The position numbers were made by a program, and so were the translations under genes. Below are positions 3,070 to 43,820 of a stretch of 64,000 bases of DNA, piece by piece (position 1 is the stretch's first letter; every line of letters begins with the position of its first letter). The stretch is from contig CASEFP010000157.1 in NCBI GenBank assembly GCA_949287225.1, positions 175-64,174 on the forward strand, in the 5' to 3' direction. The notes under the pieces were generated by a model. That model did not search any database. It worked only from the letters and a program-made list of their open reading frames with translations, and had not been told where the DNA came from. Origin of the DNA: an uncultured Lentisphaeria bacterium. Its GTDB lineage: Bacteria > Verrucomicrobiota > Lentisphaeria > Victivallales > UBA1829.

Positions 3070-6000
3070 CTCTCCTGTTTATTTTGATGTTTCCTTCTTC
3101 CGCAACGATTTCATCCGTCGCGGATTTCCAATGCAGAATCCCGTCCTTGACCCGGACTTTCTCCGTCCCGTCCGAAAACGGACAGAGCAAGGTCAGGAAT
3201 TGAACCGATTTTCCCCGTTTCAGCAGACGGAACTGCGGCAGAACCACCAGAAGCTGCCCGTGAAATCTTGTTGTGAAACGTTTGTCATACTGCTTCACTT
3301 CAGGATGCCCCAGCAGAGAGATGATATGCAGTTCCGCTTGAGCGGGGGAAATTTTTTTCCATCCTGTTCCCGTGCGTTGTGCATCGGCGTTTTTCAGGAG
3401 GACAACAGCCTCGGGCGTATCCGGCGCTTCTCCCGTCAGAGACGATCTTTGCGACAGGGCAAGCGAATGAAAACAGGCGGAGGTGCGCAGGGCAATGCGG
3501 TGTTTTCCCGCCGGCAGCCGCAGCTGGAACGGCTTTGTTCCGGCGGAGAGGCTGCGCCATTGCCAGGTATCCGGGCGGGACGGCGGCTGCGGATAGGTCA
3601 GAAGGCGCCTCTGCCCGTCGGCCTCCAGTTCCACTCCGGCCCGGGAACGTGCGTAGATATGCAGGAAAAAAGAGCCTTCTTCCGGAATTTCAAAGTCCCA
3701 TGCCGCACGGTCTTCCCCCTTCGTGCTCTGAAAGAGAGTATCGCGGACACTTTCCCCGATCCGGACCGTGCCGTCGGAATCAATGTCAATGCGCATTCCC
3801 TGATCCGCGGTAAAAACCTGTTCCACGATTGTCTCGTCGGAGTCCGTCCGGATGGAATCATGAATCAGAAAATACGGCGGAACTCCGTCGGAAGCCTTGA
3901 CCATCGCCACCGTGCGGATTCCCCGGCGCAGCCCCGCCCGCCCGCAGGGAATGCCGGAATAATCCGGAACCCCGAAACAGGAGACGCTGAACGCATCGCT
4001 GAAATCCACCGTGACGGATTCGACATTGCCGGCTCGCCGGAGTGCCCCGAGAAGCGGCGTTGAAAAGGAGCTTCTCCACCGCCCCTGGCCGTTTAACAGA
4101 ATCTGGCTGTGGTAATCGGATGCGGGAACGGACTGCCCGGCATCGGCAAGAAAACGCAGGCCATTGGCGCTGAGCGTCACAGCGCCGTATTCCAGATGCG
4201 CATGCCCCGCCTGTCTCGGCGCCGAGACGGTCAGAACCGAATCCTTTTTCCCGCTGCCGGTGCGTAGGACGGCATAGCCGGAATGCGGGAAGACAGAGGA
4301 AGAGGGCAGTTCGGAAAAATCCTGTTCCGACGCCTCGGAGGGTTCCCACCAGAGAAGTCCCGTGACCGTATTCAGTTCCGAGGCGGAACGCGGCACCCGG
4401 TTCCAGAGTTTCCGCAGAAGCGGATTTTTCCCGTAAAGCGCAAGGAGTCCGGTCGGCAGACGAAGCGGCAGATAATCGCTGTCCCCGATCGCGGGAGTTT
4501 CCGAGACCGCTTTTCCCGCAGAAACCGCCATCCAGAAAAACACCTTTTTCAGGTTGGAATCCACCAGTTCCGCGCCGCGGCCGTTCTTCTGAAGGGATAC
4601 CAGAAAGGGAAGCAGTTCCCCTACGGGATGGGCGAAATAGGAGAATCCCTCCTGCGCGTCCCCTTCCGGCGCGATCCAGCGGTTCAATGTGAGAAAGGCC
4701 AGACGCTCCGCCGCATTCAGCGACTCATCGGCAAGTGCGGAAGTGCCCGCCATTGCCAGCGCGATCGGGCCGAGGGATGCTGCAAAATAGATCGCGTAAT
4801 TCCCGCCCCCGGGACTGGCTCCGTAAATTCCGTGAACATGATGCAGGCATGTGGAAAGTTTCTGCTCCATGGAAATGAGCAGAAGACGATCCAGCTGTTT
4901 TTTCTCCGCTTCCGGTATGAATTTCCACAGCCAGTCGTAGGCGCAGGCCACGCGGTAGTCGCAGTGCATGACACCGTATGCCGTGCGGTAACGTTCGGCG
5001 GCTTCCAGGAGAATGGCAAGCGCTTTGTTCCGGAATTTCTCCTCACCGGTTACGCGGGCGGCAAAGGAAAGGGAAAAAAGCGCATCCAGCCACGGGGCAC
5101 GGTAATACAGTTCCGCAAACGCAGGGATCGCATATCGTTTCCGCAGGGGATCATCCGGAATTTTTTTCAGGGATTCGGCTATCCGCCGGTCCTCCAGATA
5201 GGAGTCGCATTGACGGAGAAAACGTTTCCAGGCCGCGCGCAGCGGAGGGGATTCCAGGCGGGCGCGGATCGCCGGAAGATCGGCAGTCAGGAAAAGCATC
5301 CGCGGCCTCGGCAGAGGCGGAGCCGGGACGGATGCGGGATATGCGCGGAGCGGCATGACGCCGGTCCGATCCGTTTCATCCAGCCCCGCCGCTTTCAGTG
5401 CCGCGCGGTCGGGGGAAATCGCAGGCGGGGAATCCGGCAGCTGTTTCGGAACCCAGCGCGGGAAATAATCGCTGGTCTCCGGGGAGCGGGTCACATTGAA
5501 ATGGCTGTTCGCGGCGGGATCGAAGATCCAGATGTCCGCGTTTCCGGAACGCACCGAAGAGTAGGCGATGCGCGAGCCGTCCGGATGCCAGGCGGGATGT
5601 CCGCTCCAGAACGGGGTGCTGAAATGAATCTTTTTGTCGGAGCCGTCCGGTTTCACGCTGATGATGGAATGCCTTCCCTTCCCGGAAACGGAAAAGACGA
5701 TGCGGTTGCCGCTTCCCCAGTCCGGTTCCCGGATGTCGCCGTCGAGCGAGAAAATCCGTTCCTGTGTAAAACCGTTGAGGTCGGAGACAAAGAGCTCGAA
5801 CCGTCCGTTGCGGTTGCTGATGAAGGCGATTCTGTCACCGGAGGGCGACCAGGAGGGCGAGAGATTGGCCGATTTGTTCCAGGAGATATTCCGCAATCCG
5901 GAAGCGTCCGCATTCATGATGTAGATTTCGCAGTTGTTTCCCAGATCGGAAACAAAGGCAATCCGACGCCCGTCCGGCGACCAGCGCGGCTGGTATTTTT

Positions 6001-33900: not shown

Positions 33901-36225
33901 ATGGCTATTATCGGCAAGGTGGAAAAAAGGAGTCTGAAGGTAAGGATTCTGAATCTTTCGATTCACGTGCTGCTCCTTCTGGGCGCGGTCACGATGGTTT
34001 ATCCGCTCCTTCTGATGATTTCGGGTTCTTTCAAGAGTGATGTGGACTTCTCGGAGTTCTCGCTGCTGCCTGAATATATTTACAATGACGAGCTGCTGTT
34101 CCAGAAACATCTGGCGACAAAATTCAATGCGCAGAACATCCTGTTCTTCAATGCGTTCCGGGAACCGATCGGTTCTGTGAACAATGTTCCAAAACCGGAA
34201 AATCCCATCCGCGCGCGCTTTGACGACTACAAAGCGTTTCTCGGCGAAATGAAAGAACAGAAACCCCATTACTGGCGCGGAATCGGCATGGCAAATGAAG
34301 TCGGTGTTTATCCGATGGTGCTGCGCGAATACCGCGAATGGCTCAGAAAGAAATACGGAAAAGGCGAGGAAGGACTCGAAAAACTCAACGCGGCCTGCGG
34401 CACTGATTACGACTCCTGGGAGGCCGTGACGCTTCCGGTCGAACTGTTCCACACCCGTAAGATTTCGACGGATTACGACAAGGGAATTCTGAAGGAGATC
34501 CTCGAATTCAAGAATACACAGATCAGCGGGCTGCATACCTACTGGGTGGATCTGGATGGTTTTTTTGTTGAGAGCCTGCGGAAAAATGTTGCTCGGGAAC
34601 TGCCCGAGCTGAACAGGAAGCTGGGCACTCATTACAATTCCTGGCTGGACATTCCGCTTCCGCGCTCTTATCCGAAGGAAAATGAAAAATTCAGAAAACT
34701 CTGGGCGAAATTCGTCCGTGAGGATGTGAATTACTCCTTCCTCTCCCTGGATCCCGCCGCAACGCCGCTCTGGATCAAGTTCGTGAAGGGGAAATACAAG
34801 GATATCAAGGAGGTCAACGCCCTCTATGAAACCAGTGCAAAGGTGTTCGACTCCTTGAAGATGCCGTTGCGCGAACCAGCCTCCGGACAGATCCGGACCG
34901 ACTGGGATGAGTTTGTTTCGCTTGTTGTTCCCGCGCAATACATCCGGATCGACACCCTCGCCGGCGAATACCGCGACTGGCTGAAAAAGAAATACGGCAC
35001 CGTCGCGCGCCTGAACGATGTCTACGAAATGGGCTATAAGTCGATGGATGCCATCCCGCTTCCCGCCGAATTCCCGCAGGAGAACATCGCTCTTGCGGCG
35101 GATTGGACGGAATTTGTCAATTCCATGGGACCCGAGGAAATCGGACTGGTCCGCACCGCCATTTCCAATTACCGTGATTTCATCGAGGACAAATACCGGA
35201 AACCGGACAAGACCGTTGATTATCAAAAGATGTCCTTTGATTACAAAGGCACGATCCGGAACAAACAGGAAATTCCGTTTTATTCCAGATATCCGGCATC
35301 TCCGGCCATCAGCATGAGCGTGAAGGATCATTACCGGGAATTTGTGAGAAATCCGGCCAACGGAAACTCGCGCTTCATCTCCGATACAGCCAAAATGCTC
35401 CCGCTGTGGCGGAAATTCCTCCAGAACAAATATGGAAGCGTCGATGCGCTCAACAAAGCATGGGGCACGGTTTATACGACCTGGGACAGAATCACCCCCC
35501 CGATGAAGGAGTATGAATGGTTTTCCGTACTCGACCATAAATGGGATCTGGTGAAGGAATATCTGAAACGCAATTACGTCATGGTGGTCGATACGATCAT
35601 CACCAACGGAAGCGCCGCGAAAAATACGCTCATCTACTGTGCGCTCGCGGTGCTGGCGGCATTGATCGTCAATCCGCTTTGCGCCTACGCGCTCTCCCGC
35701 TACAAGATGGCGCCCGCATACAAGATTCTGCTGTTCCTGATGCTGCCGATGGCGTTCCCGCCGATGGTGCTGGGAATCCCGCAGTTCCTGCTGATCAAGA
35801 ACCTGAATCTCCTGAACACCTTCTGGGCGCTGATCCTGCCGACGATGGCGAACGGATACATGATCTTCCTGCTGAAGGGATTCTTCGACAGTCTGCCCAA
35901 GGAGCTGTTCGAGTCCGCGGCAATCGACGGCGCTAGCGAATGGACCGTGTTCTGGCATATCGCCATGGGGCTTTCGACGCCGATCCTCTCCGTGCTGGCG
36001 CTGAACACCTTCACCGTGGCGTACGGCAACTTCATGATGGCGTTCCTGCTCTGTCAGGACAAGTCGATGTGGACAATGATGGTGCATCTGTATCAATTGC
36101 AGATCCGTTCCAGCCAGGCGGTGGGATTCGCAGCGCTGATCATCGCTGCCGTCCCGACGCTTCTGGTGTTCATTTTCTGCCAGAACATCATCATCAAGGG
36201 CATTGTCGTTCCGACGGAGAAATAA
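33901..36225 (+). CDS. MalG-like ABC permease with a ~530-aa periplasmic insertion between TM1 and TM2
   Basis: TM1 is ILNLSIHVLLLLGAVTMVYPLLLMISGSF. A soluble region spans aa ~46-575. The canonical permease core follows, with the EAA loop ESAAIDGASEWTVFWHIAMGLSTP. The gene starts 3 nt after the upstream stop. Confidence 0.8.
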   Translation: MAIIGKVEKRSLKVRILNLSIHVLLLLGAVTMVYPLLLMISGSFKSDVDFSEFSLLPEYIYNDELLFQKHLATKFNAQNILFFNAFREPIGSVNNVPKPENPIRARFDDYKAFLGEMKEQKPHYWRGIGMANEVGVYPMVLREYREWLRKKYGKGEEGLEKLNAACGTDYDSWEAVTLPVELFHTRKISTDYDKGILKEILEFKNTQISGLHTYWVDLDGFFVESLRKNVARELPELNRKLGTHYNSWLDIPLPRSYPKENEKFRKLWAKFVREDVNYSFLSLDPAATPLWIKFVKGKYKDIKEVNALYETSAKVFDSLKMPLREPASGQIRTDWDEFVSLVVPAQYIRIDTLAGEYRDWLKKKYGTVARLNDVYEMGYKSMDAIPLPAEFPQENIALAADWTEFVNSMGPEEIGLVRTAISNYRDFIEDKYRKPDKTVDYQKMSFDYKGTIRNKQEIPFYSRYPASPAISMSVKDHYREFVRNPANGNSRFISDTAKMLPLWRKFLQNKYGSVDALNKAWGTVYTTWDRITPPMKEYEWFSVLDHKWDLVKEYLKRNYVMVVDTIITNGSAAKNTLIYCALAVLAALIVNPLCAYALSRYKMAPAYKILLFLMLPMAFPPMVLGIPQFLLIKNLNLLNTFWALILPTMANGYMIFLLKGFFDSLPKELFESAAIDGASEWTVFWHIAMGLSTPILSVLALNTFTVAYGNFMMAFLLCQDKSMWTMMVHLYQLQIRSSQAVGFAALIIAAVPTLLVFIFCQNIIIKGIVVPTEK

Positions 36226-36376: not shown

Positions 36377-37198
36377 ATGAGAAGGATTCATCACTACACC
36401 ATTCTGGAGCTCCTGGTCGTCGTGGCGATTGCCGCTGTGATTCTCGGGATTGCGACGCCCGCGTTTTCCGTGATGATGAAGGGCGGCGCCATGACAAGCA
36501 CAACCCGGGAGCTCGCTGCGAAAATCAAGGCCGCGCGATCCTATGCCGCGGCGAACAACGCTCATGTGGCGCTGCTGTTCCCGACCGGCAAGGACTGTCC
36601 CCTGAAACCCGCATTCCATTCCAGTGTCTACCGTCCATGCCTTGTCTACAAGGACGGTGACGGAAACTGGATGTTCGATTCCTGGATCGAAGGAGAGCCG
36701 TGGCGTTCAATGCAGAAGGGGATCATCATGGTGCCTTATCCGGGCAACGAGCCCAGTGCAAGTTCCAGTTCCGTACCGAAACCGGATGACAAGGATTTTG
36801 CAAAGGAGGAATATGACAAGCTGTGGGATGGTCTGAACAGTTCCGAAAAAGAACTGTATCTGGTGAAGGATGTCCCGCTCGGAGCGCTCCTGAAAGGGCC
36901 GGACAAGGACAATGACGACGAGTATCCGGTTCACCGTGCAATCATCTTCAAACCGAACGGACAGCTGGCGGATGTGGAGGTTGACAAGCGTCTGCGTTTC
37001 CGTCTGATCGAGGGAACCGTCCTCAGCGGTTCGGATGCTAAAGCCACTGCGACCAATGTGTTTACCGAAGGGACGGCAACTTATCTGATTGCAAAAACCT
37101 TCACGATCCATCCCCTGACCTGCAAAATGGCGATCGAGGACCTCAAATTCAAATGGACTCCAGGTTCTTCATCATTGGACGACACAAAGGTGAACTGA
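36377..37198 (+). CDS. Type II secretion/type IV pilus pseudopilin-like protein (GspH/FimT-like)
   Basis: N-terminus is MRRIHHYTILELLVVVAIAAVILGIATPAFSVMMKGG (prepilin methylation-type). A later segment reads IIFKPNGQL. The DGH C-terminal motif of DUF1559 is absent. The RBS is GAGAGGTG. Confidence 0.7.
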   Translation: MRRIHHYTILELLVVVAIAAVILGIATPAFSVMMKGGAMTSTTRELAAKIKAARSYAAANNAHVALLFPTGKDCPLKPAFHSSVYRPCLVYKDGDGNWMFDSWIEGEPWRSMQKGIIMVPYPGNEPSASSSSVPKPDDKDFAKEEYDKLWDGLNSSEKELYLVKDVPLGALLKGPDKDNDDEYPVHRAIIFKPNGQLADVEVDKRLRFRLIEGTVLSGSDAKATATNVFTEGTATYLIAKTFTIHPLTCKMAIEDLKFKWTPGSSSLDDTKVN

Positions 37199-37297
37199 CG
37201 GCTCGGGTTCCTTGTCTCTGAAGATTGTTTTTTCCGGAAAACGGTATATAGTACCGTCATGCAGATTTCATTCATTTCAGAAAGGGGGGAATACGGA

Positions 37298-37804
37298 ATG
37301 AGGAGAAGTTTTTCTTTTCTGGCTCCGCTCTGGGCAGTTCCCGTGCTTTTATTGTGTTCCTGTCAGGAGGATCCGCTTCGTGATCTGCCGCTTGGGGTCA
37401 TCGGCATTGAAGAGCCTGTATTCGTGATGCCGTTCGAGGCTCCGTTTCATGCCAAGATCGACACGGGGGCTGATACCTCGTCCATTGACGCGGAGGAGAT
37501 CCGGCTGACCGAGCGCGACGGAAAAAAGTTTGTCTCATTCACGATCCGCCAGCGCGGCACGGAAAAAGTCCACTCCTATACTCTGCCGCTGAAACGGAAG
37601 GTATCCATCGTGCGGCACGGAGGAAAATCGCAGTCGCGGTATATTGTCATGCTGACTCTGCGGATCGGGAAGCTTGAGATGGAGCGTGAATTCTCACTTG
37701 CGAACCGGAACAACTTCCGTTGCCAGGTGTTGATCGGCAGAAATATCATTTCCGGCACGGCGGCGGTCGATCCGTCCCGGCGGAATCTGACGGGTGCATT
37801 ATGA
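37298..37804 (+). CDS. Lipoprotein with a retropepsin-like 'putative ATP-dependent zinc protease' (RimB-like) domain
   Basis: Start refined to ATG 37298. Lipobox: MRRSFSFLAPLWAVPVLLLCSCQ. Core: FHAKIDTGADTSSIDAEEIRLTERDGKKFVSFTI...CQVLIGRN, with a D-T-G-A aspartic-protease-like motif. Confidence 0.65.
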   Translation: MRRSFSFLAPLWAVPVLLLCSCQEDPLRDLPLGVIGIEEPVFVMPFEAPFHAKIDTGADTSSIDAEEIRLTERDGKKFVSFTIRQRGTEKVHSYTLPLKRKVSIVRHGGKSQSRYIVMLTLRIGKLEMEREFSLANRNNFRCQVLIGRNIISGTAAVDPSRRNLTGAL

Positions 37805-39351
37805 AGATGTCGCATCCGAAACGGAACATCTGCATCATCGCGGGCATTCTGGTTCTGCTTGCGGCGGCGATCGCGGCATTCAAAATCGGCGTCCTGCGCT
37901 ACTCCTTTTCGCGCAGTGTCAATGCCGAACTCTGGGTAATGGAGTGCCGCGCCCGTTTCACTGCAAACGGAGGGCCGGTGACGGCGAAACTTTCGCTGCC
38001 CTATGAAATTCCGGGTTATTATCTTGTCGTGACGAGCCAGCCTCCCGGTTATGCATTTTCTGTTCAGGAACGCGACGGAAGGACGCTTTCCGTCTGGCAC
38101 GCGGAAGAGCGGACCGGAGGGCAGTCGCTCTCCTGCCAGATTTCATTTATTCCGGACGCCAGTGCGCGTCCTCCCGCGGAAGAGGCCCCGGAGGAGCCGG
38201 AGCGTCCCCGCTGGCCCGCCGGGCAGAAAACGCTTGCCGGGCAGCTGGTCCGCAGTCTGGATCCGGAGGGGAAACGTTCCGTTCCGCAGTTCGCCGATGC
38301 CCTTTTCCGGCAGATTCGCAAAGGAGACAATCCGGCAGTGTCCGTGCTGTTTGCCGACAAGCGGCAGGGGGCGCCTTTTCTTCAGGTCGTCCGGAATCTT
38401 CTGGCGATGAAAAAAATCGCTTCGCGCGAGGTGGAAGGCGTGTTTCTGACGGACAAACGGCGCCGTCAGTCGCCCGTCACAATGCTTGAGATTTATTACG
38501 ACGGAGCCTTTCACCGGTATGATCCGGCGACGGGGACACTCAGCACGCAGAAGGATTTCGTCCCGCTGCGGCGCGGCGGCGAACCGCTGTTCGAGCTCTC
38601 CGGCGGACGGCAGGCGAAACTGCGCTTTTCCGCATTGAAGACCAACATCAGCGCCGCCGGCCTGAACCGCCTGCGCGGAAGTTTTATCGAACACTCCTTT
38701 CTGATGGACATCATCGGCTATGAGCTGCCGATTTCGGAACAGAATGTGTTCAAACGTCTGGCGCTGCTTCCGCTGGCAGTGCTTCTGATCGTGATTGTCC
38801 GCAACATCGTAGGGTTGCAATCGATGGGAACGTTCATGCCGGTGCTGATCGCGCTGGCGTTTCTGGAGACGGGGCTGCTCACGGGGTTGATCGCCTTTCT
38901 TCTGATTCTGAGTGTCGGACTGGGGGCACGGGCGCTCCTGACGAACATGAATCTTCTGATGGTGCCGCGCATCTCGGCGGTCGTGGTGATTGTGATTCTG
39001 CTGATGAAGGTGATCAGTGTATTGTCGTATGCGTTCGGATTCACGCAGGGGCAGTCGATCACATTCTTCCCGCTGATTATTCTGGCGTGGACGATTGAAC
39101 GGGCGTCGATGGTGTGGGAGGAGGACGGCGCAGCTACCATGTTCCGGCAGCTTGCGGTGAGCCTTGCGGCCTGCATTCCCTGCTACTTCATTCTGAACAA
39201 CGACTATCTCCAGTATCTCTTTTTCACGTTCCAGGAGTTCAATCTGGTGATTCTCGCCCTGATTCTCCTGCTCGGCACCTACACGGGATACCGCCTGACG
39301 GAACTCAAACGCTTCCAGCCGCTGGTGAATTCATGTTCGGACCGCTCCTGA
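37801..39351 (+). CDS. Membrane protein: extracytoplasmic 'inactive transglutaminase-like' N-domain fused to a ~7-TM C-terminal domain
   Basis: Start refined to ATG 37801, in an ATGA overlap with the protease stop. There is one N-terminal TM, a ~300-aa soluble region, and then a dense block of hydrophobic helices (aa ~330-510). The family assignment is from remembered architecture, not a search. Confidence 0.55.
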   Translation: MKMSHPKRNICIIAGILVLLAAAIAAFKIGVLRYSFSRSVNAELWVMECRARFTANGGPVTAKLSLPYEIPGYYLVVTSQPPGYAFSVQERDGRTLSVWHAEERTGGQSLSCQISFIPDASARPPAEEAPEEPERPRWPAGQKTLAGQLVRSLDPEGKRSVPQFADALFRQIRKGDNPAVSVLFADKRQGAPFLQVVRNLLAMKKIASREVEGVFLTDKRRRQSPVTMLEIYYDGAFHRYDPATGTLSTQKDFVPLRRGGEPLFELSGGRQAKLRFSALKTNISAAGLNRLRGSFIEHSFLMDIIGYELPISEQNVFKRLALLPLAVLLIVIVRNIVGLQSMGTFMPVLIALAFLETGLLTGLIAFLLILSVGLGARALLTNMNLLMVPRISAVVVIVILLMKVISVLSYAFGFTQGQSITFFPLIILAWTIERASMVWEEDGAATMFRQLAVSLAACIPCYFILNNDYLQYLFFTFQEFNLVILALILLLGTYTGYRLTELKRFQPLVNSCSDRS

Positions 39352-40295
39352 AATGCTTTGCCTCGCCCGCGGCATTGAGAAAGGCGGGCGTTCTCGGCAT
39401 GAACCGCCGCAACCACGACTACATCGCGGCATACAACAGGCGTCACGATTATCCGATGGTCGACGACAAACTCCTGACCAAGGAGCTTGCGGCGAAGGCG
39501 GGCGTTCCGGTCGCGGCGCTGATCGGTGTGATCCGTTATCAGCATGAGGCGAAGGATTTTCCGCGCCTGACGGAAAAGTATCCGAGTTTCGTCATCAAGC
39601 CGGGTCACGGCAGCGGCGGGCGCGGCATTCTCGTCATCAAAAGCCATGACGGGGAACAGTTCCGGAAAGCGGACGGTTCCGTCATCGGCTGGCAGCAGGT
39701 TTACTCACACATCACGAACATTCTGAGCGGACTTTACAGTCTGGGCGGGCAGACCGACTATGCCCTGTTCGAGGAGTGCATCTCCTTTTCGAAAATCTTT
39801 TCAGACTTCAGTTTCCAGGGGGTGCCGGACATCCGGATCATTGTGTTCAAAGGGTATCCCGTCATGGCGATGATGCGTCTTGCGACGAAACGTTCGGACG
39901 GGCGCGCCAATCTCCATCAGGGAGCGGTCGGGGTCGGGCTGAGCATCCGCGGCGGCAGGCCGCTGCGGGCGGTCATGCTGGACCGGATGATCACGCACCA
40001 TCCGGACACGGGACGGGCACTCTCGGAGCTGGCGGTGCCGGACTGGGGAAGGCATCTGGAGCTGGCCGCACGCTGTGCGGAGATGATCAAACTCGGCTAC
40101 TTCGGCGCGGACATCGTCAACGACCGGGAAAAAGGGCCGCTTCTTCTGGAGCTCAACGCCCGGCCCGGGCTCGGAATCCAGATTGCCAATCATGCGGGTC
40201 TGCGTTCGCGCCTGGAGCTTATTGAGCGCCTGCCTTCCACTGAAACACGTTCCGTAATGGAGAAAATCGCATTTTCACAGGAGCATTTCTCCTGA
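39333..40295 (+). CDS. Alpha-L-glutamate ligase-like (RimK-related) ATP-grasp protein
   Basis: Start refined to ATG 39333, overlapping the upstream gene by 19 nt. N-terminus: SPAALRKAGVLGMNRRNHDYIAAYNRRHDYPMVDDKLLTKELA. ATP-grasp core: FVIKPGHGSGGRGILVI...ANLHQGAVGVGL...ELNARPGL. Confidence 0.8.
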   Translation: MFGPLLKCFASPAALRKAGVLGMNRRNHDYIAAYNRRHDYPMVDDKLLTKELAAKAGVPVAALIGVIRYQHEAKDFPRLTEKYPSFVIKPGHGSGGRGILVIKSHDGEQFRKADGSVIGWQQVYSHITNILSGLYSLGGQTDYALFEECISFSKIFSDFSFQGVPDIRIIVFKGYPVMAMMRLATKRSDGRANLHQGAVGVGLSIRGGRPLRAVMLDRMITHHPDTGRALSELAVPDWGRHLELAARCAEMIKLGYFGADIVNDREKGPLLLELNARPGLGIQIANHAGLRSRLELIERLPSTETRSVMEKIAFSQEHFS

Positions 40296-40469
40296 GATCC
40301 TTTGTTCCGTCCCGGAAACTGATTTTTTGAAAAAACGGAAGTATAATTTCTGTAACTATCTGAAAATAATAATATTAATAGTTTTTCAAATCTTTTCTGC
40401 TCTCCGTTTTTGTCCTTTCCTTCCATCATAAAAAAACAAGATTTTCTCGAAAAGATGCTGTTTCAGGGC

Positions 40470-40535: not shown

Positions 40536-40643
40536 ATGGAAAACGACAAAAAAGAACCGTTCAAGCATGCAAAACTGCAACAGTGGCTTTTCGTCATCAT
40601 CTGCGCAATCCTCCTCATTTTCATTGGAGCAATCACCGCCTGA
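40536..40643 (+). CDS. Candidate 35-aa single-pass membrane peptide (below the ORF-track size cut-off)
   Basis: ATG at 40536 lies 8 nt after a strong RBS (AAAGGAG). Product: MENDKKEPFKHAKLQQWLFVIICAILLIFIGAITA, stop TGA at 40641-40643. The N-terminus is charged and a 19-residue hydrophobic helix follows. Confidence 0.4.
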   Translation: MENDKKEPFKHAKLQQWLFVIICAILLIFIGAITA

Positions 40644-40836: not shown

Positions 40837-42612
40837 ATGAAAGGTCTGACACGATTATTCGGTTTCATCCGTCCGTATTGGGGGCTGTGCGTAGTATCCG
40901 CGATCAGTCTTTTGATCTTCACTGCGCTCGGAATGCCGCTGCCCTGGTTTCTCAAACTGATCATCGACCGTGCGCTCGGCAGTTCCAATCTGGGCATGCT
41001 GTGCCTGCTTCTCGGGGGAATTGTCGTCATTTACATCCTCCGCGAAATTTTCTTCTACATCAGCCATTATCTCTTTTACTACACCGGCAACCGGATTCTG
41101 TTCGGCGTGCGCGTGAAACTCTTCAAGCATCTGCAGAGCCTTTCACTGCGCTTTTATCAGGAGTACCGCACAGGAAAGCTGATCTCGAACATCCTGACGG
41201 ATGTGTCCATGCTCAACGGGATGATCAGCACGGTGCTGGTGAATCTGGTGATCCACCTCTTCACGATTACCTGTATTCTCATCGCGCTGATCGTGATGAG
41301 TCCGAAACTTTCGTTGATCTGCCTGATTCTTGTGCCGCTCCAGATTGCGAACTTCACCTATTTCCGGCGTTCGATGAAGAAGGTTGCCATGAATCTCCGG
41401 GAACGGATGTCGGAGGTTTCCGCGAGTCTTGCGGAGACGATCAACGGGATCAAGGTGGTCAAATCCTTCGGCAAGGAGCGCACGGAAAGCCGTGAATTCG
41501 CCGAGATGCTGCGCCCGACATTCGATGCCTCGCTCAACCTCAATATGAAAGGCGTCTACACGTGGATGATTGCGGAAGGGATCAACATCACCTGCATTAT
41601 TCTTGCGCTCGGCTGGGGCGGGCTCATGACGGTCAAGGGGGAGATGAGCATCGGCGATCTGGTCGCGTATTACACCTATCTGACGATGCTGACCGCTCCC
41701 TTGAACCAGCTGAGCGGGCTTTCTTCCGCAATTTCCGACGGAATGACCAGCATCGACCGCATCGGCGTTCTGTTCGATTCGATCCCCGAAATCAAGGAAT
41801 CGGCTTCTCCGCGCGAACTGGAATACGCGAAGGGGAAACTCAAATTCACGAATGTCAGTTTTGCCTATACGAAAAACAAGCCTGTTCTGCGGGATTTCAC
41901 GCTTGAGGTGGAACCCGGTCTGAAAGTAGCGCTTGTCGGGCCGTCCGGTTCGGGGAAATCGACGATCGCCAGTCTGCTGATGCGCTTCTTCGACGTGACC
42001 TCGGGAAGCATTGAAATCGACGGGGTGGACCTCCGCGACATGAGCATGGAATCGCTCCGTCAGAATGTGGGCATCGTGCTCCAGGAGTCCTTCCTGTTCA
42101 GCGGAACGGTCGAGGACAACATCAAATACGGGTGCGAACATGCGATGCATGCGCAGGTTGTCGAGGCGGCGAAGATGGCGAATGCGCATGATTTCATCAT
42201 GGAGCTTCCGCGCGGCTATAACTCCGAGGTCGGGGAAAACGGCGTCAGTCTCTCCGGCGGACAGAAGCAGCGCATTGCCATTGCCCGGGCGATTCTCAAA
42301 AATCCGCGCGTTCTGGTGCTCGACGAAGCGACCTCGGCACTCGACACCGTTTCGGAAGCCTCCGTGCAGGAGGCGCTGGATACGCTGATGAAGAAGCGGA
42401 CGACGATCATCATAGCCCACCGTCTTTCGACCGTGCGCAATTCCGATATGATCGTCGTTCTTCAGGACGGCGTCATCGCGCAGAAAGGCAAACATGCGGA
42501 TCTCCTTCTGGAGAAGGGCGTCTACCGCGATCTCTACGCGATGCAGCTCAAGGAATCGACCAAAGGCAGCGAACTTTTCGCCGTCGGCGACAATACAGGC
42601 AAAAACCTCTGA
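40837..42612 (+). CDS. ABC exporter, fused TMD-NBD (MsbA/half-transporter type)
   Basis: Start refined to MKGLTRLFGFIRPYWG (ATG 40837). It has six TM helices, Walker A (GPSGSGKST), signature (LSGGQKQR) and Walker B (VLVLDEATSALD). There is no N-terminal C39 peptidase domain. Confidence 0.9.
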   Translation: MKGLTRLFGFIRPYWGLCVVSAISLLIFTALGMPLPWFLKLIIDRALGSSNLGMLCLLLGGIVVIYILREIFFYISHYLFYYTGNRILFGVRVKLFKHLQSLSLRFYQEYRTGKLISNILTDVSMLNGMISTVLVNLVIHLFTITCILIALIVMSPKLSLICLILVPLQIANFTYFRRSMKKVAMNLRERMSEVSASLAETINGIKVVKSFGKERTESREFAEMLRPTFDASLNLNMKGVYTWMIAEGINITCIILALGWGGLMTVKGEMSIGDLVAYYTYLTMLTAPLNQLSGLSSAISDGMTSIDRIGVLFDSIPEIKESASPRELEYAKGKLKFTNVSFAYTKNKPVLRDFTLEVEPGLKVALVGPSGSGKSTIASLLMRFFDVTSGSIEIDGVDLRDMSMESLRQNVGIVLQESFLFSGTVEDNIKYGCEHAMHAQVVEAAKMANAHDFIMELPRGYNSEVGENGVSLSGGQKQRIAIARAILKNPRVLVLDEATSALDTVSEASVQEALDTLMKKRTTIIIAHRLSTVRNSDMIVVLQDGVIAQKGKHADLLLEKGVYRDLYAMQLKESTKGSELFAVGDNTGKNL

Positions 42613-42638: not shown

Positions 42639-43820
42639 ATGTCCAAAAGCGGAAACCGGAATTCCAATCTGCGTGCGAAAATCCGAGTATTCATCGCATT
42701 GACGATCATCGGCGCCGTGGCGATCCTTGCCGCGCTGATTTCGCTGTTCCTGTTCGAGATCGAGGACACCATTTACGCGGATGGCGTCATCATTCCCGAG
42801 CACACCTTTGAACTGGTCGGGCATGTGGATGCGCATGTGAAGAAATTCAATTTCCGGACCGGTGACGACGTCAGGGAGGGGGAAGTCATCGCCGAACTGG
42901 ACTCCCGCGCCTACGAGGCCGCCGCGATTGCCGCGGATGCCGCCGTAAAGGAGCTTGCCGCTGAGCTGGAGGTCAAAAAAGCCGAGCTTGCCATTCTGGA
43001 AAAAGAGCCGCTGCCCAAGGAGCTCTGGTATTCCAAAACCAATCTGAGGGAGTGTCAGGAAAAAGTCGAGCGCACGCGGGACCGTCTGGAACGCTCCAAG
43101 AAACTCCAGCTTGTCAGCGCCATTTCCAAGATTGAATTTGAAAAAGCCGAACTGGAAGCCATTGCAAGTGAAGCCGAACTTGCCCGTGCGAAGGAAAACG
43201 CCCGGCGGGTGGATGAAGGTCTCGGACAGCAGTATATCGAAAAAGCGAAGCGGGACGTCGGACTGGTCGCCGCAAAGCTTGAAGGCAAAAAGGCGGAACT
43301 GGCGTTCCTTCAGAAACAGATCGACGAATGCAAGCTGGTGGCGCCGGCGACGGGACGTCTGGTTGAACTGGACTGCAAAAATACCTGGTATGTCGCACGC
43401 GGCAAGGTGGCGGCGAAAATCGCCTCCGGCAACCGGAGCCGTGCCATCGCCAGGGTGGATGCCCGTGTCGTGCGCAAAGTCAAGCCCGGCCAGCGTGTCC
43501 GTGTGACCAGCGACGTTTACAACAAACTGCAGTATGGGAATTTTACGGGTGTGGTCAAATGGATCGGCGACATTCCGCTGACAGGTATGCCGAATGATTC
43601 CGTCACGCGCTATCCGGTCGAGGTCGAACTGGATCCCGAGGGATATGTGCTGAAATACGGTTCCGGCGTGGAGCTTGCCATTGTCACCGGCAAACAGCCT
43701 GCGATGTTTGCATTGCTGAACATGAGCGACGAGGATTTTGACGCGGGAAAAAAACGCGAGGCGATGAGGCGGCGTTATGAGGCGGAACATCTTACTCCGG
43801 CGGGTGCGGAACGGAAATGA
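42639..43820 (+). CDS. HlyD-family membrane fusion/adaptor protein
   Basis: 393 aa with an N-terminal TM, a long coiled-coil (AELEVKKAELAILEK...EAELARAKENARR) and lipoyl/beta-barrel-like flanks. It starts 26 nt after the ABC gene. Confidence 0.85.
   Translation: MSKSGNRNSNLRAKIRVFIALTIIGAVAILAALISLFLFEIEDTIYADGVIIPEHTFELVGHVDAHVKKFNFRTGDDVREGEVIAELDSRAYEAAAIAADAAVKELAAELEVKKAELAILEKEPLPKELWYSKTNLRECQEKVERTRDRLERSKKLQLVSAISKIEFEKAELEAIASEAELARAKENARRVDEGLGQQYIEKAKRDVGLVAAKLEGKKAELAFLQKQIDECKLVAPATGRLVELDCKNTWYVARGKVAAKIASGNRSRAIARVDARVVRKVKPGQRVRVTSDVYNKLQYGNFTGVVKWIGDIPLTGMPNDSVTRYPVEVELDPEGYVLKYGSGVELAIVTGKQPAMFALLNMSDEDFDAGKKREAMRRRYEAEHLTPAGAERK

Follow-up and report, generated by a model that had tools for sequence, protein, structure and literature searches.

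Three co-oriented genes in a 64,000-nucleotide stretch of DNA (the window) from a Victivallales/Lentisphaeria gut genome (Lentisphaerota) code for a predicted lipoprotein protease, a multi-helix membrane protein, and an ATP-grasp ligase, and they raise the question of whether this is an uncharacterised system or a distant version of a known one. A sequence-only reading had put the trio forward as a candidate uncharacterised system with no defined substrate, product, or phenotype. We find instead that the three genes are, with near certainty, the Lentisphaerota orthologue of the rloABC operon, named in 2025 in Pseudomonas aeruginosa PA14, where rloB is PA14_41710 and rloC is PA14_41730 (Lormand et al., mBio; PMC12239564). 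This identity follows from the fit to the Pfam and NCBIfam families, the end-to-end alignment to the RloB model, the matches of the protease to structures 9G58 and 9G59, and the retention of gene order in 85 of 87 loci. The trio is an already named, though only partly understood, system and not itself a discovery; the statement that nothing about it was defined is outdated by the rloABC phenotypes, the two crystal structures, the in vitro specificity of the protease, and the NCBIfam RloA and RloB models.

The gene boundaries and the two overlaps that chain the genes agree exactly with those of the sequence-only reading (Table 1). For gene 1, we prefer the start at 37298 to the upstream ATG at 37259 chosen by the gene caller, because a Shine-Dalgarno-like run precedes it and because the orthologues begin at the equivalent methionine. 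The −4 overlap between genes 1 and 2 recurs in the close Lentisphaeria relatives L001 to L004 (L005 is not scorable), the −19 overlap between genes 2 and 3 is kept in the Lentisphaeria clade, and the gene 2/gene 3 junction is overlapping in 61% of 85 loci. The overlaps had been taken to argue for stoichiometric co-expression; they make translational coupling possible, but an overlap does not show stoichiometric expression. Terminator-like sites are no more numerous in this region than expected by chance, and only the position of the hairpin beyond gene 3 is suggestive.

Table 1. Features of the rloABC-like locus, in coordinates of the window.
Feature	Coordinates	Strand	Description
Gene 1, rloA-like	37298..37804	+	ATG at 37298, stop 37802-37804; 168-aa lipoprotein, retropepsin-like aspartic peptidase
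Gene 2, rloB-like	37801..39351	+	ATG at 37801, stop 39349-39351; 516-aa inner-membrane protein
Gene 3, rloC-like	39333..40295	+	ATG at 39333, stop 40293-40295; 320-aa predicted cytoplasmic RimK-related ATP-grasp ligase
Shine-Dalgarno-like run	37281..37289	+	AAAGGGGGG, read from sequence; 8 nt 5′ of the gene 1 ATG
Lipoprotein signal peptide, gene 1	37298..37363	+	MRRSFSFLAPLWAVPVLLLCSC; ends in lipobox L-C-S-C22
Catalytic motif D55-T-G-A58, gene 1	37460..37471	+	GAC ACG GGG GCT; retropepsin fold
ATGA stop/start overlap, gene 1/gene 2	37801..37804	+	Read from sequence
TM1, gene 2	37825..37881	+	Residues 9-27; hydropathy and charge count; model helix 6-30
Outward-facing domain, gene 2	37882..38757	+	Residues 28-319 (~290 aa); beta-sandwich plus papain/transglutaminase-like part
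Multi-helix membrane block, gene 2	38758..39300	+	Residues 320-500; hydropathy; followed by invariant tail GYRxxELxRF
19-nt overlap, gene 2/gene 3	39333..39351	+	Read from sequence
Terminator-like hairpin	40305..40327	+	TTCCGTCCCGGAA and T-run; 10 nt past the gene 3 stop

The lipobox and the D-T-G-A retropepsin-like core noticed earlier in gene 1 are both present, and a profile search places the protein in the retropepsin-like family PF05618 (1.1e-26; 93.8 bits, cutoff 27). The NCBIfam RloA3, RimB, RloA2, and RloA models give 50-78 bits, all below their equivalog cutoffs, and none of the RloA, RloA2, and RloA3 models (NF05226x) reaches its naming threshold (best 77.6 bits versus 210); the RloA and RloB models are narrow equivalog or exception models built around Pseudomonas. 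Relatives in the PDB are the RloA crystal structures 9G58 and 9G59, and 2PMA, with the flap of the gene 1 protein being about 8 aa shorter than that in 9G58. Its N-terminus has the basic n-region, hydrophobic core, and lipobox Cys22 of an export signal, both by rule and by eye, and presumably fits PROSITE rule PS51257; the lipobox-type cysteine is kept in orthologues from Lentisphaeria, Opitutales, Phycisphaerae, and gut alphaproteobacteria, whereas the RloA proteins in the defining paper are described simply as carrying a signal peptide.

Among 79 gene 1 orthologues, D55, G57, and A58 never vary, T56 is kept in 99%, and a basic residue occupies each of the positions K53, R100, R114, and R137 in 96-100%. 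Judging by their spacing and by the alignment to 9G58, and not by a direct alignment to RloA_Pa, these four probably correspond to RloA_Pa K46, R92, R114, and R137, which coordinate octa-glutamate; when R114 or R137 of RloA_Pa is mutated, cleavage in vitro falls strongly and the protein no longer complements in vivo (PMC12239564). The mature domain of the gene 1 protein has a single cysteine (C141) and hence no disulfide pair, in contrast to the cysteine pair reported for periplasmic Pseudomonas RloA orthologues, and 69 of the 79 operon-linked orthologues have no mature-domain cysteine at all; the disulfide may be a trait of the Pseudomonas clade and not a defining one.

The architecture proposed earlier for the gene 2 protein, with one N-terminal transmembrane segment, an outward-facing domain of ~300 aa, and a block of about seven helices, is upheld by hydropathy, and its N-terminus is predicted to lie inside because the basic MKMSHPKR precedes TM1 (positive-inside rule). 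Matches to PF14400 (residues 28-185, 1.9e-17) and PF14402 (residues 262-508, 3.1e-85) put it in the expected 7TM-transglutaminase family, and although it falls short of the 900-bit cutoff of the NCBIfam RloB model NF052267 (261.4 bits, E 1.5e-77), the alignment covers model positions 9-506 of 508. These domains, together with the topology from hydropathy and the positive-inside rule and the lack of conserved Cys or His, are those of the RloB membrane protein of rloABC. Neither the 17-sequence nor the 109-sequence alignment shows a Cys, His, or Asp that is invariant in the outward domain, and no match to PF01841 was obtained; the conserved Cys-His-Asp triad of active transglutaminases is absent. 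By eye, the LLAxKGIPAR...LEVY...YDPxTG region resembles a transglutaminase core motif in which Cys and His are replaced. In the AF2 model (pLDDT 82.4), this domain has weak Foldseek matches to TglA (9CRN) and MOA (6TSN), and our searches, Foldseek among them, found no solved structural relative of the membrane block. In the 109-sequence set, invariant residues include R334, G343-T-F-x-P347, R377, N384-L-L-x-V-x-R390, W430-x-I-E-R434, E441, G496-Y497, E501-L502, and R504-F505, with N335 and R498 nearly so (at least 90%); the many charged and polar residues among those in the 7TM block are as would be expected of a conduit or a catalytic membrane module, and a transport role is a guess.

Gene 3 is, as proposed, clearly a RimK-related ATP-grasp ligase: the motifs quoted for it are present, it scores 421.8 bits with TIGR02291 (cutoff 314.2), and it matches PF14397 at 2.8e-86, a family that Pfam names "sugar-transfer associated" ATP-grasp. 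The best PDB sequence matches are the RimK structures 5ZCT, 4IWX, and 7QYS. Loss of the ATP-grasp catalytic residues would have spoken against a ligase; the lysine, glycine loop, and Mg ligands are intact and RxNLHQG is kept, with K89, G93-S-G-G-x-G98, D166, R168, R182, N193-L-H-Q-G197, D260, E273, and N275 each at least 95% conserved in 82 orthologues. We detected no signal peptide or transmembrane segment in gene 3. It scores far below the RimK equivalog cutoffs (TIGR00768, 47.3 versus 143.4 bits; NF007764, 25.6 versus 331), and glutamate is for that reason a putative substrate.

To ask how far the arrangement extends, we examined 87 fetched loci carrying a gene 2 homologue, from PVC bacteria (Lentisphaeria, Opitutales, and Phycisphaerae) and from Alpha-, Beta-, and Gammaproteobacteria. 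The order and strand of the three genes are the same in 85 of these, which is far beyond chance, and at least 97% of the junctions are 60 nt or shorter. The flanking genes differ between relatives, and we therefore regard the trio as the unit. The Lentisphaeria copy falls in a PVC clade in a phylogeny that largely follows taxonomy, and the composition of the trio is that of the neighbouring genes.

The match to the PA14 operon thus extends to the order A-B-C, a PF05618 retropepsin with DTG, a PF14400 plus PF14402 membrane protein, a RimK-like ATP-grasp protein, the catalytic Asp and basic poly-Glu-binding positions, and the predicted topology; the differences are the Lentisphaerota gut anaerobe host, the short lipoprotein form of the protease, the 4-nt and 19-nt overlaps, and RloA and RloB scores under the NCBIfam cutoffs. 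The RimABK system, in which RimK and RimB act in S6 polyglutamylation (Pseudomonas, and RimK in Escherichia coli), shares the ATP-grasp ligase, of which RimK is the closest solved relative, and a protease of the same fold whose RimB model matches gene 1. Unlike gene 1, however, RimB is cytoplasmic and lacks a signal peptide, the Rim system has no 7TM partner whereas here a 7TM gene lies between the protease and ligase genes, and the scores of gene 3 lie under the RimK family cutoffs. Genetically, rimB and the rloA genes of P. aeruginosa do not interact (PMC12239564).

A more distant functional likeness is to the poly-gamma-glutamate system (PgsBCA/CapBCA with PgdS/CapD) and the cyanophycin system (CphA/CphB/CphE). 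In both, an ATP-dependent synthase joins amino acids into a polymer without the ribosome, and a hydrolase specific to that polymer accompanies it; synthesis of poly-gamma-glutamate takes place at the membrane, with release to the exterior. These are analogues only: PgsB is Mur-ligase-like and of an unrelated family, CphA has a different architecture, and the linkage expected here is alpha and not gamma. Our searches, Pfam and Foldseek among them, did not relate gene 2 to PgsC or PgsA. The association of ATP-grasp, inactive-transglutaminase-7TM, and "zinc protease" genes was reportedly predicted, by comparative genomics only, by Iyer, Abhiman, Burroughs, and Aravind (Mol Biosyst 2009). The domain trio here is the same and the Pfam descriptions match exactly, and the PF14397, PF14400, and PF14402 models presumably trace back to that work.

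What the system does is best approached from P. aeruginosa, the source of the cleavage, phenotype, and epistasis data; those from the Lentisphaeria locus are gene structure, families, conserved residues, topology, and synteny. The secreted RloA proteases cut runs of at least 8 Glu in vitro, on artificial substrates that include RpsF-8E; cells that lack all three RloA proteases do not survive in hypo-osmotic medium; and the defects and lethality of ΔrloA1-3 are suppressed when rloB or rloC is deleted (PMC12239564). We lean, by a little, towards the explanation that this rloABC orthologue makes a Glu-rich polymer with its ligase, moves it outward through its membrane protein, and trims it with its anchored protease. 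In the cytoplasm, the RloC-like ligase would use ATP to build an alpha-linked Glu-rich polymer or tail, much as its relative RimK makes poly-alpha-L-glutamate (PMC12239564). The RloB-like protein would receive this product at its conserved cytoplasmic face and C-terminal tail and pass or present it to the periplasmic side, where the catalytically dead transglutaminase-like domain would act as a binding module. There, the RloA-like protein, as a membrane-anchored homodimeric retropepsin with a basic substrate groove, would cut long Glu runs and so keep the envelope polyanion in check, in length or in amount. A cell that lacks the protease would build up too much of the product and be harmed by it, above all when external osmolarity is low; with no ligase or no membrane protein the build-up would not occur, which would explain the rescue of protease-less P. 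aeruginosa. The predicted topology places ligase and protease on opposite sides of the gene 2 protein. A flow from ligase through 7TM protein to outward protease was already part of the sequence-only reading, and it agrees with the published cleavage and suppression; its mechanistic core, namely the ligase product, transport by RloB, and the same working in Lentisphaeria, is what we infer.

Three other readings need to be weighed. Rather than make a free polymer, the ligase could polyglutamylate one particular protein, which might be exported, membrane-bound, or RloB itself; RloB would serve as a scaffold or a sensor, and the protease outside would take the tag off once the protein is exported. 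This is one of two options listed by the rloABC authors (PMC12239564), and it draws on the addition of Glu by RimK to the RpsF C-terminus, the trimming of RimK-modified S6 by RimB, and the in vitro cleavage of RpsF-8E; docking could take place at the invariant C-terminal tail of gene 2. We nonetheless consider it unlikely, as the ligase is cytoplasmic and the protease outside, such that a tagged protein would need to be exported with a long acidic tail, the C-terminus of the gene 2 protein does not end in Glu and varies beyond PLV, and the conserved unit encodes no candidate target. Somewhat more doubtful, taken as a whole, is an envelope-remodelling rather than polyglutamate pathway, with the ligase adding amino acids to a sugar-linked or peptidoglycan-related precursor, RloB flipping or positioning a lipid-linked intermediate, and the protease editing the peptide part in the periplasm. 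The requirement of RloA for at least 8 consecutive Glu, and the need in vivo for Glu-binding arginines that are conserved here, fit this poorly, and in the loci that we examined the trio is not accompanied by glycosyltransferase or lipid-carrier genes; the Pfam name of the gene 3 family speaks for it, as do the cell shape defects, beta-lactam sensitivity, and osmotic lysis of ΔrloA1-3, for which the authors discuss peptidoglycan homeostasis (PMC12239564), and the overproduction of membrane vesicles by a Shewanella RloB homologue mutant (PMC12096838).

The third idea, almost certainly wrong, is that chance alone put the genes side by side, or that they are a mobile cassette for defence or a toxin and have nothing to do with envelope physiology. 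Flanking genes that vary between relatives are seen with mobile cassettes too, but the order is held across several phyla, composition and phylogeny are unremarkable as described above, none of the three proteins has a PADLOC-DB match at E ≤ 0.01, and the three functions are linked genetically (PMC12239564); the synteny and epistasis data effectively refute this candidate.

Returning to the explanation of a Glu-rich polymer made inside and trimmed outside, a bolder form of it, which we offer tentatively and think rather improbable as it stands, is that the whole family is a periplasmic poly-alpha-glutamate system in which RloC polymerises Glu, RloB is a new kind of polymer exporter with a fold that has no solved relative, and a membrane-tethered retropepsin sets chain length. 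If so, the cell would tune a fixed envelope polyanion for osmotic (Donnan) balance, the PVC clade would show the system to be old and not a gammaproteobacterial invention, and anaerobic gut PVC bacteria would be using a form of the protease that is lipid-anchored and free of disulfides.

The value of the locus is comparative. In the defining paper, rloABC is presented as an essentially proteobacterial system, with 96% of RloB matches in Proteobacteria (PMC12239564), whereas here a complete and intact rloABC is found in Lentisphaerota, and Opitutales and Phycisphaerae carry relatives of it. Conservation of the catalytic and putative poly-Glu-binding residues across that distance supports poly-Glu cleavage as the probable ancestral activity, and singles out the disulfide of Pseudomonas and the N-terminal extensions of Gammaproteobacteria as lineage-specific traits. 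A small, overlap-coupled version with a single protease, like that in Lentisphaeria, could be a convenient minimal system for reconstitution.

The genes for the protease (gene 1), the membrane protein (gene 2) and the ATP-grasp ligase (gene 3) are chained by overlaps: the gene 1 stop codon overlaps the gene 2 start in an ATGA at 37801-37804, and gene 2, which ends with a TGA at 39349-39351, overlaps gene 3, whose ATG is at 39333, by 19 nt. This arrangement of three co-oriented genes, described in the sequence-only reading, is borne out by the ORF list as well as by the raw sequence. On the public contig, which is identical, automatic calling puts the gene 1 start at 37259 (181 aa), but a start at 37298 is better supported: AAAGGGGGG precedes it at 37281-37289, it yields a textbook lipoprotein signal (MRRSFSFLAPLWAVPVLLLCSC), and it is the equivalent of the Met at which orthologues begin, some of which have few open codons upstream.

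Features of the trio and its flanks (window coordinates)
Feature	Coordinates	Strand	Length	Basis or remark
774-aa protein	33901-36225	+	774 aa	
273-aa prepilin-type protein	36377-37198	+	273 aa	100 nt upstream of gene 1
Gene 1 (protease)	37298-37804	+	168 aa	ORF list and raw sequence
Gene 2 (membrane protein)	37801-39351	+	516 aa	ORF list and raw sequence
Gene 3 (ligase)	39333-40295	+	320 aa	ORF list and raw sequence
35-aa ORF	40536-40643	+	35 aa	gene call; MENDKKEPFKHAKLQQWLFVIICAILLIFIGAITA, C-terminal half hydrophobic
ABC exporter (ABC_membrane + ABC_tran)	40837-42612	+		directly 3' of the 35-aa ORF
HlyD-like adaptor	42639-43820	+		3' of the ABC exporter

Profile-HMM searches with Pfam and NCBIfam confirm all three of the families proposed for the trio. 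Gene 1 belongs to PF05618, a family of RimB-like retropepsins that Pfam calls 'putative ATP-dependent zinc protease' (1.1e-26), and scores 50-78 bits against the NCBIfam RloA3, RimB, RloA2 and RloA models, in each case below the cutoff. Gene 2 matches PF14400 (1.9e-17) and PF14402 (3.1e-85), and aligns with NF052267, 'osmotic stress tolerance membrane protein RloB', over positions 9-506 of 508 with 261 bits, against the 900-bit cutoff of this narrow model. Gene 3 matches PF14397 (2.8e-86), with weaker matches to RimK and other ATP-grasp families in Pfam, and exceeds the cutoff of the NCBIfam model TIGR02291 ('alpha-L-glutamate ligase-like protein'; 421.8 bits, cutoff 314.2).

The NCBIfam RloA and RloB model names led us to the rlo operon of Pseudomonas aeruginosa PA14, which consists of exactly the same trio (Lormand et al., mBio 2025, PMC12239564). 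There, rloA codes for a signal-peptide-bearing retropepsin-like protease, rloB (PA14_41710) for an inactive transglutaminase that is joined to seven membrane-spanning helices, and rloC (PA14_41730) for an ATP-grasp protein. RloA, for which structures 9G58 and 9G59 were solved, cuts runs of at least eight consecutive Glu, both internally and at C-termini, with the substrate coordinated by K46, R92, R114 and R137; when R114 or R137 is mutated, cleavage in vitro drops strongly and complementation in vivo is lost. Mutants lacking three redundant RloA paralogues fail to grow in salt-free medium and are defective in cell shape, biofilm formation and beta-lactam tolerance, and deletion of rloB and/or rloC suppresses these defects. 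The same source attributes poly-alpha-L-glutamate synthesis to RimK, and its authors leave open what the protease cuts in vivo, what RloC makes and what RloB does. Beyond this paper we found no later RloB or RloC biochemistry and otherwise only incidental mentions. In a Shewanella vesiculosa transposon screen, disruption of an RloB-type gene increased the production of membrane vesicles (PMC12096838).

The window trio is almost certainly an orthologue of rloABC, its closest known system, with which it shares families, gene order, topology and key residues. It differs in its host phylum (Lentisphaerota), in its protease, which is short and lipid-anchored, lacks the disulfide and has a shorter flap, in its overlapping genes, and in scoring below the narrow NCBIfam RloA and RloB cutoffs. 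The locus is also related to RimK/RimB, yet it is not a member of that system, since it has an exported protease and a 7TM partner and falls short of the RimK thresholds. The sequence-only reading described the cassette correctly and interpreted it in a way that is partly supported; its further claims, of an uncharacterised system with no defined substrate, product or phenotype, are outdated, as PMC12239564 already names and phenotypes the system as rloABC and reports RloA cleavage of Glu runs.

The D-T-G-A core of gene 1 (residues 55-58; 37460-37471) and its lipoprotein signal are both as first described. Among 79 non-identical orthologues D55, G57 and A58 never vary, T56 is 99% conserved, and positions K53, R73, R100, R114, R137 and R148 each carry a basic residue in at least 95%. 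Judged by spacing from the catalytic Asp, alignment to 9G58 and conservation, K53, R100, R114 and R137 probably correspond to the poly-Glu-binding K46, R92, R114 and R137 of RloA from P. aeruginosa, and the deep conservation of these putative binding positions supports poly-Glu cleavage as the likely ancestral rlo activity. The flap region is about eight residues shorter than in the aligned 9G58, and the Cys pair described in PMC12239564 as conserved among periplasmic RloA orthologues is absent from gene 1 and from 69 of the 79 operon-linked orthologues. Lipobox-type signals recur among PVC and gut alphaproteobacterial orthologues, whereas many gammaproteobacterial ones instead carry long N-terminal extensions that resemble coiled coils, in some cases behind a lipobox.

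These extensions, rich in Gln, Glu and Leu, precede the protease domain in Shewanella, Zobellella, Enterovibrio and other Gammaproteobacteria (fetched loci L033, L037, L038, L044, L051, L054, L064, L081 and others; gene 1 homologues at about 4440-4960 in locus coordinates), and in some (L071, L074) they come after a lipobox. They may tether the protease to the membrane or space it from the membrane; we found no mention of them in the accessible text of PMC12239564.

Gene 3 contains the motifs quoted in its initial description, and its alignment with 82 orthologues shows that the ATP-grasp catalytic residues are kept. At least 95% conserved are the ATP-binding K89, the G93-S-G-G-x-G98 loop, D166, R168, R182, N193-L-H-Q-G197 and the Mg-ligand set D260/E273/N275, and these positions align with the corresponding RimK motifs. 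A GVLGMNxRN sequence at the N-terminus of the ligase is conserved as well.

Hydropathy and charge predict that gene 2 has its N-terminus inside, a first transmembrane helix at residues 9-27, an outward-facing domain at 28-319, and a hydrophobic block at 320-500 followed by a basic C-terminal tail inside. Neither the 17- nor the 109-homologue alignment shows an invariant Cys, His or Asp in the outward domain, which fits the presumed inactivity of the transglutaminase, and a Pfam search of residues 134-300 at E <= 10, meant to catch a transglutaminase core, returned nothing. Invariant in the membrane block are R334, GTFxP (343-347), R377, NLLxVxR (384-390), WxIER (430-434) and E441, and toward the C-terminus G496-Y497, E501-L502 and R504-F505; N335 and R498 come close to invariance, at 90% or more of the 109-sequence set. 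The AlphaFold2 model, for which the 109-sequence alignment served as input, is confident (mean pLDDT 82.4, pTM 0.70) and comprises a beta-sandwich, a part with helices and beta-strands, and a helical membrane bundle. The sequence matched no PDB chain, and a Foldseek search of the PDB with the model returned nothing at E <= 0.001; weak matches of fair probability link the outward domain to papain/transglutaminase-like folds (TglA, 9CRN; MOA, 6TSN), and we distrust a weak match to the ALMT1 anion channel (probability 0.51). Having found no convincing relative of the membrane bundle among solved structures, we assign the 7TM block to no transporter class, and infer a transport role for gene 2 from its topology, the invariant polar residues of the membrane block, and the published epistasis.

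Joining the beta-sandwich to the helical part of the outward domain is a Pro/Glu-rich unstructured stretch, ARPPAEEAPEEPERPRWP (38164-38220; residues ~122-140). It is probably a mere linker, since it varies among homologues and is far from the eight or more consecutive Glu required by RloA.

A gene 2 identical to that in the window occurs on an ENA metagenome scaffold and in a Logan assembly, and its nearest genomic relatives, at 77-87% identity, are in Victivallales/Lentisphaeria MAGs (phylum Lentisphaerota, PVC group). Scanning one genome per species with a profile turned up at least 585 loci with a gene 2 relative; 80 were kept and, together with close relatives, gave 87 loci. Homologues of all three genes lie in the same order and on the same strand in 85 of these, across PVC bacteria and other phyla; one exception is at a contig edge and the other has no gene 1 match at the threshold used. 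This synteny, with the lack of any match of the trio proteins to PADLOC defence models, effectively excludes both chance adjacency and a defence cassette. The hosts, as titled in the sequence records and with MAG labels that may err, include Lentisphaeria, Victivallales, Opitutales, Phycisphaerae and many gut and rumen Alphaproteobacteria, as well as Shewanella, Endozoicomonas, Photobacterium, Zobellella, Nitrosomonas and Rhodocyclaceae. With start codons chosen heuristically, both junctions are 60 nt or shorter in at least 97%; genes overlap at the gene 2/gene 3 junction in 61% of loci and at the gene 1/gene 2 junction in 24%, and the exact -4 and -19 overlaps are common to the Lentisphaeria clade.

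A neighbor-joining tree of genes 2 and 3, which lacks support values and is indicative only, places the window inside a clade of Lentisphaeria and Opitutales, distinct from two other clades, one of gut Alphaproteobacteria and one of Gamma- and Betaproteobacteria. This placement argues against recent import from Gammaproteobacteria, which we reject also on the trio's GC3 of 0.66-0.74, the same as that of its neighbours. Elsewhere in the window we found no paralogues of gene 1 or gene 3, such as a RimK/RimB pair. What is new here is modest: an intact PVC clade is documented for a system whose RloB matches were described as 96% proteobacterial (PMC12239564). The cassette is only half understood but named and phenotyped, and the window brings breadth, not a new principle.

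Three other loci depart from these patterns. L027, from a Phycisphaerae MAG, has a gap of about 400 nt between its gene 2 and gene 3 homologues (~3385-3796), where nearly all others have 60 nt or less; an insertion, an additional small gene or an assembly problem may account for it. In the same tree L014, from a Victivallales MAG, is sister to the gut alphaproteobacterial clade and not to other Lentisphaeria, and L080, from a 'Bacteroidaceae' bin, is nested within that clade, suggesting either that the genes moved horizontally between gut bacteria or that contigs were mis-binned.

As to what the trio does, a RimK-like ligase, a protease for Glu runs on the outside, gene 2 between them both in gene order and in predicted cell position, and the suppressor genetics make a four-step polymer model the simplest reading. 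The cytoplasmic ligase would make a Glu-rich polymer, RloB would move or present it to the envelope, and the anchored protease would limit it, unrestrained polymer being toxic at low osmolarity. We advance this model tentatively, as one that may quite possibly be right; in essence it is the mechanism first proposed from the sequence, which the field still entertains as a hypothesis. Of two live rivals, a protein-tagging role, in which a specific protein is polyglutamylated, seems unlikely. That the ligase joins amino acids onto a cell-wall or glycopolymer precursor is consistent with the Pfam name of the gene 3 family and with the cell-shape and beta-lactam phenotypes of the P. aeruginosa RloA-paralogue mutants, and we regard it as rather improbable.

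The 35-aa ORF, the ABC exporter and the HlyD-like gene are absent beside the trio in relatives at 85-87% identity, and we therefore reject them as members and take the trio itself as the conserved unit. The 273-aa protein has no Pfam match, is found upstream of gene 1 in the nearest relatives only, and is probably not part of the operon; its prepilin-type N-terminus, HHYTILELLVVVAIAAVILG, is typical of numerous pseudopilin-like proteins in PVC bacteria. Further upstream, the 774-aa protein has a transmembrane helix at its N-terminus and an ABC permease domain (BPD_transp_1) at its C-terminus; the long region between them partially matches glycoside hydrolase families 42 and 14. For a sugar ABC permease this architecture is unusual, and the two closest Victivallales relatives keep the protein at 84-85%. 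The 35-aa ORF and the ABC exporter after it could represent a small peptide, exported or membrane-bound, together with its exporter.
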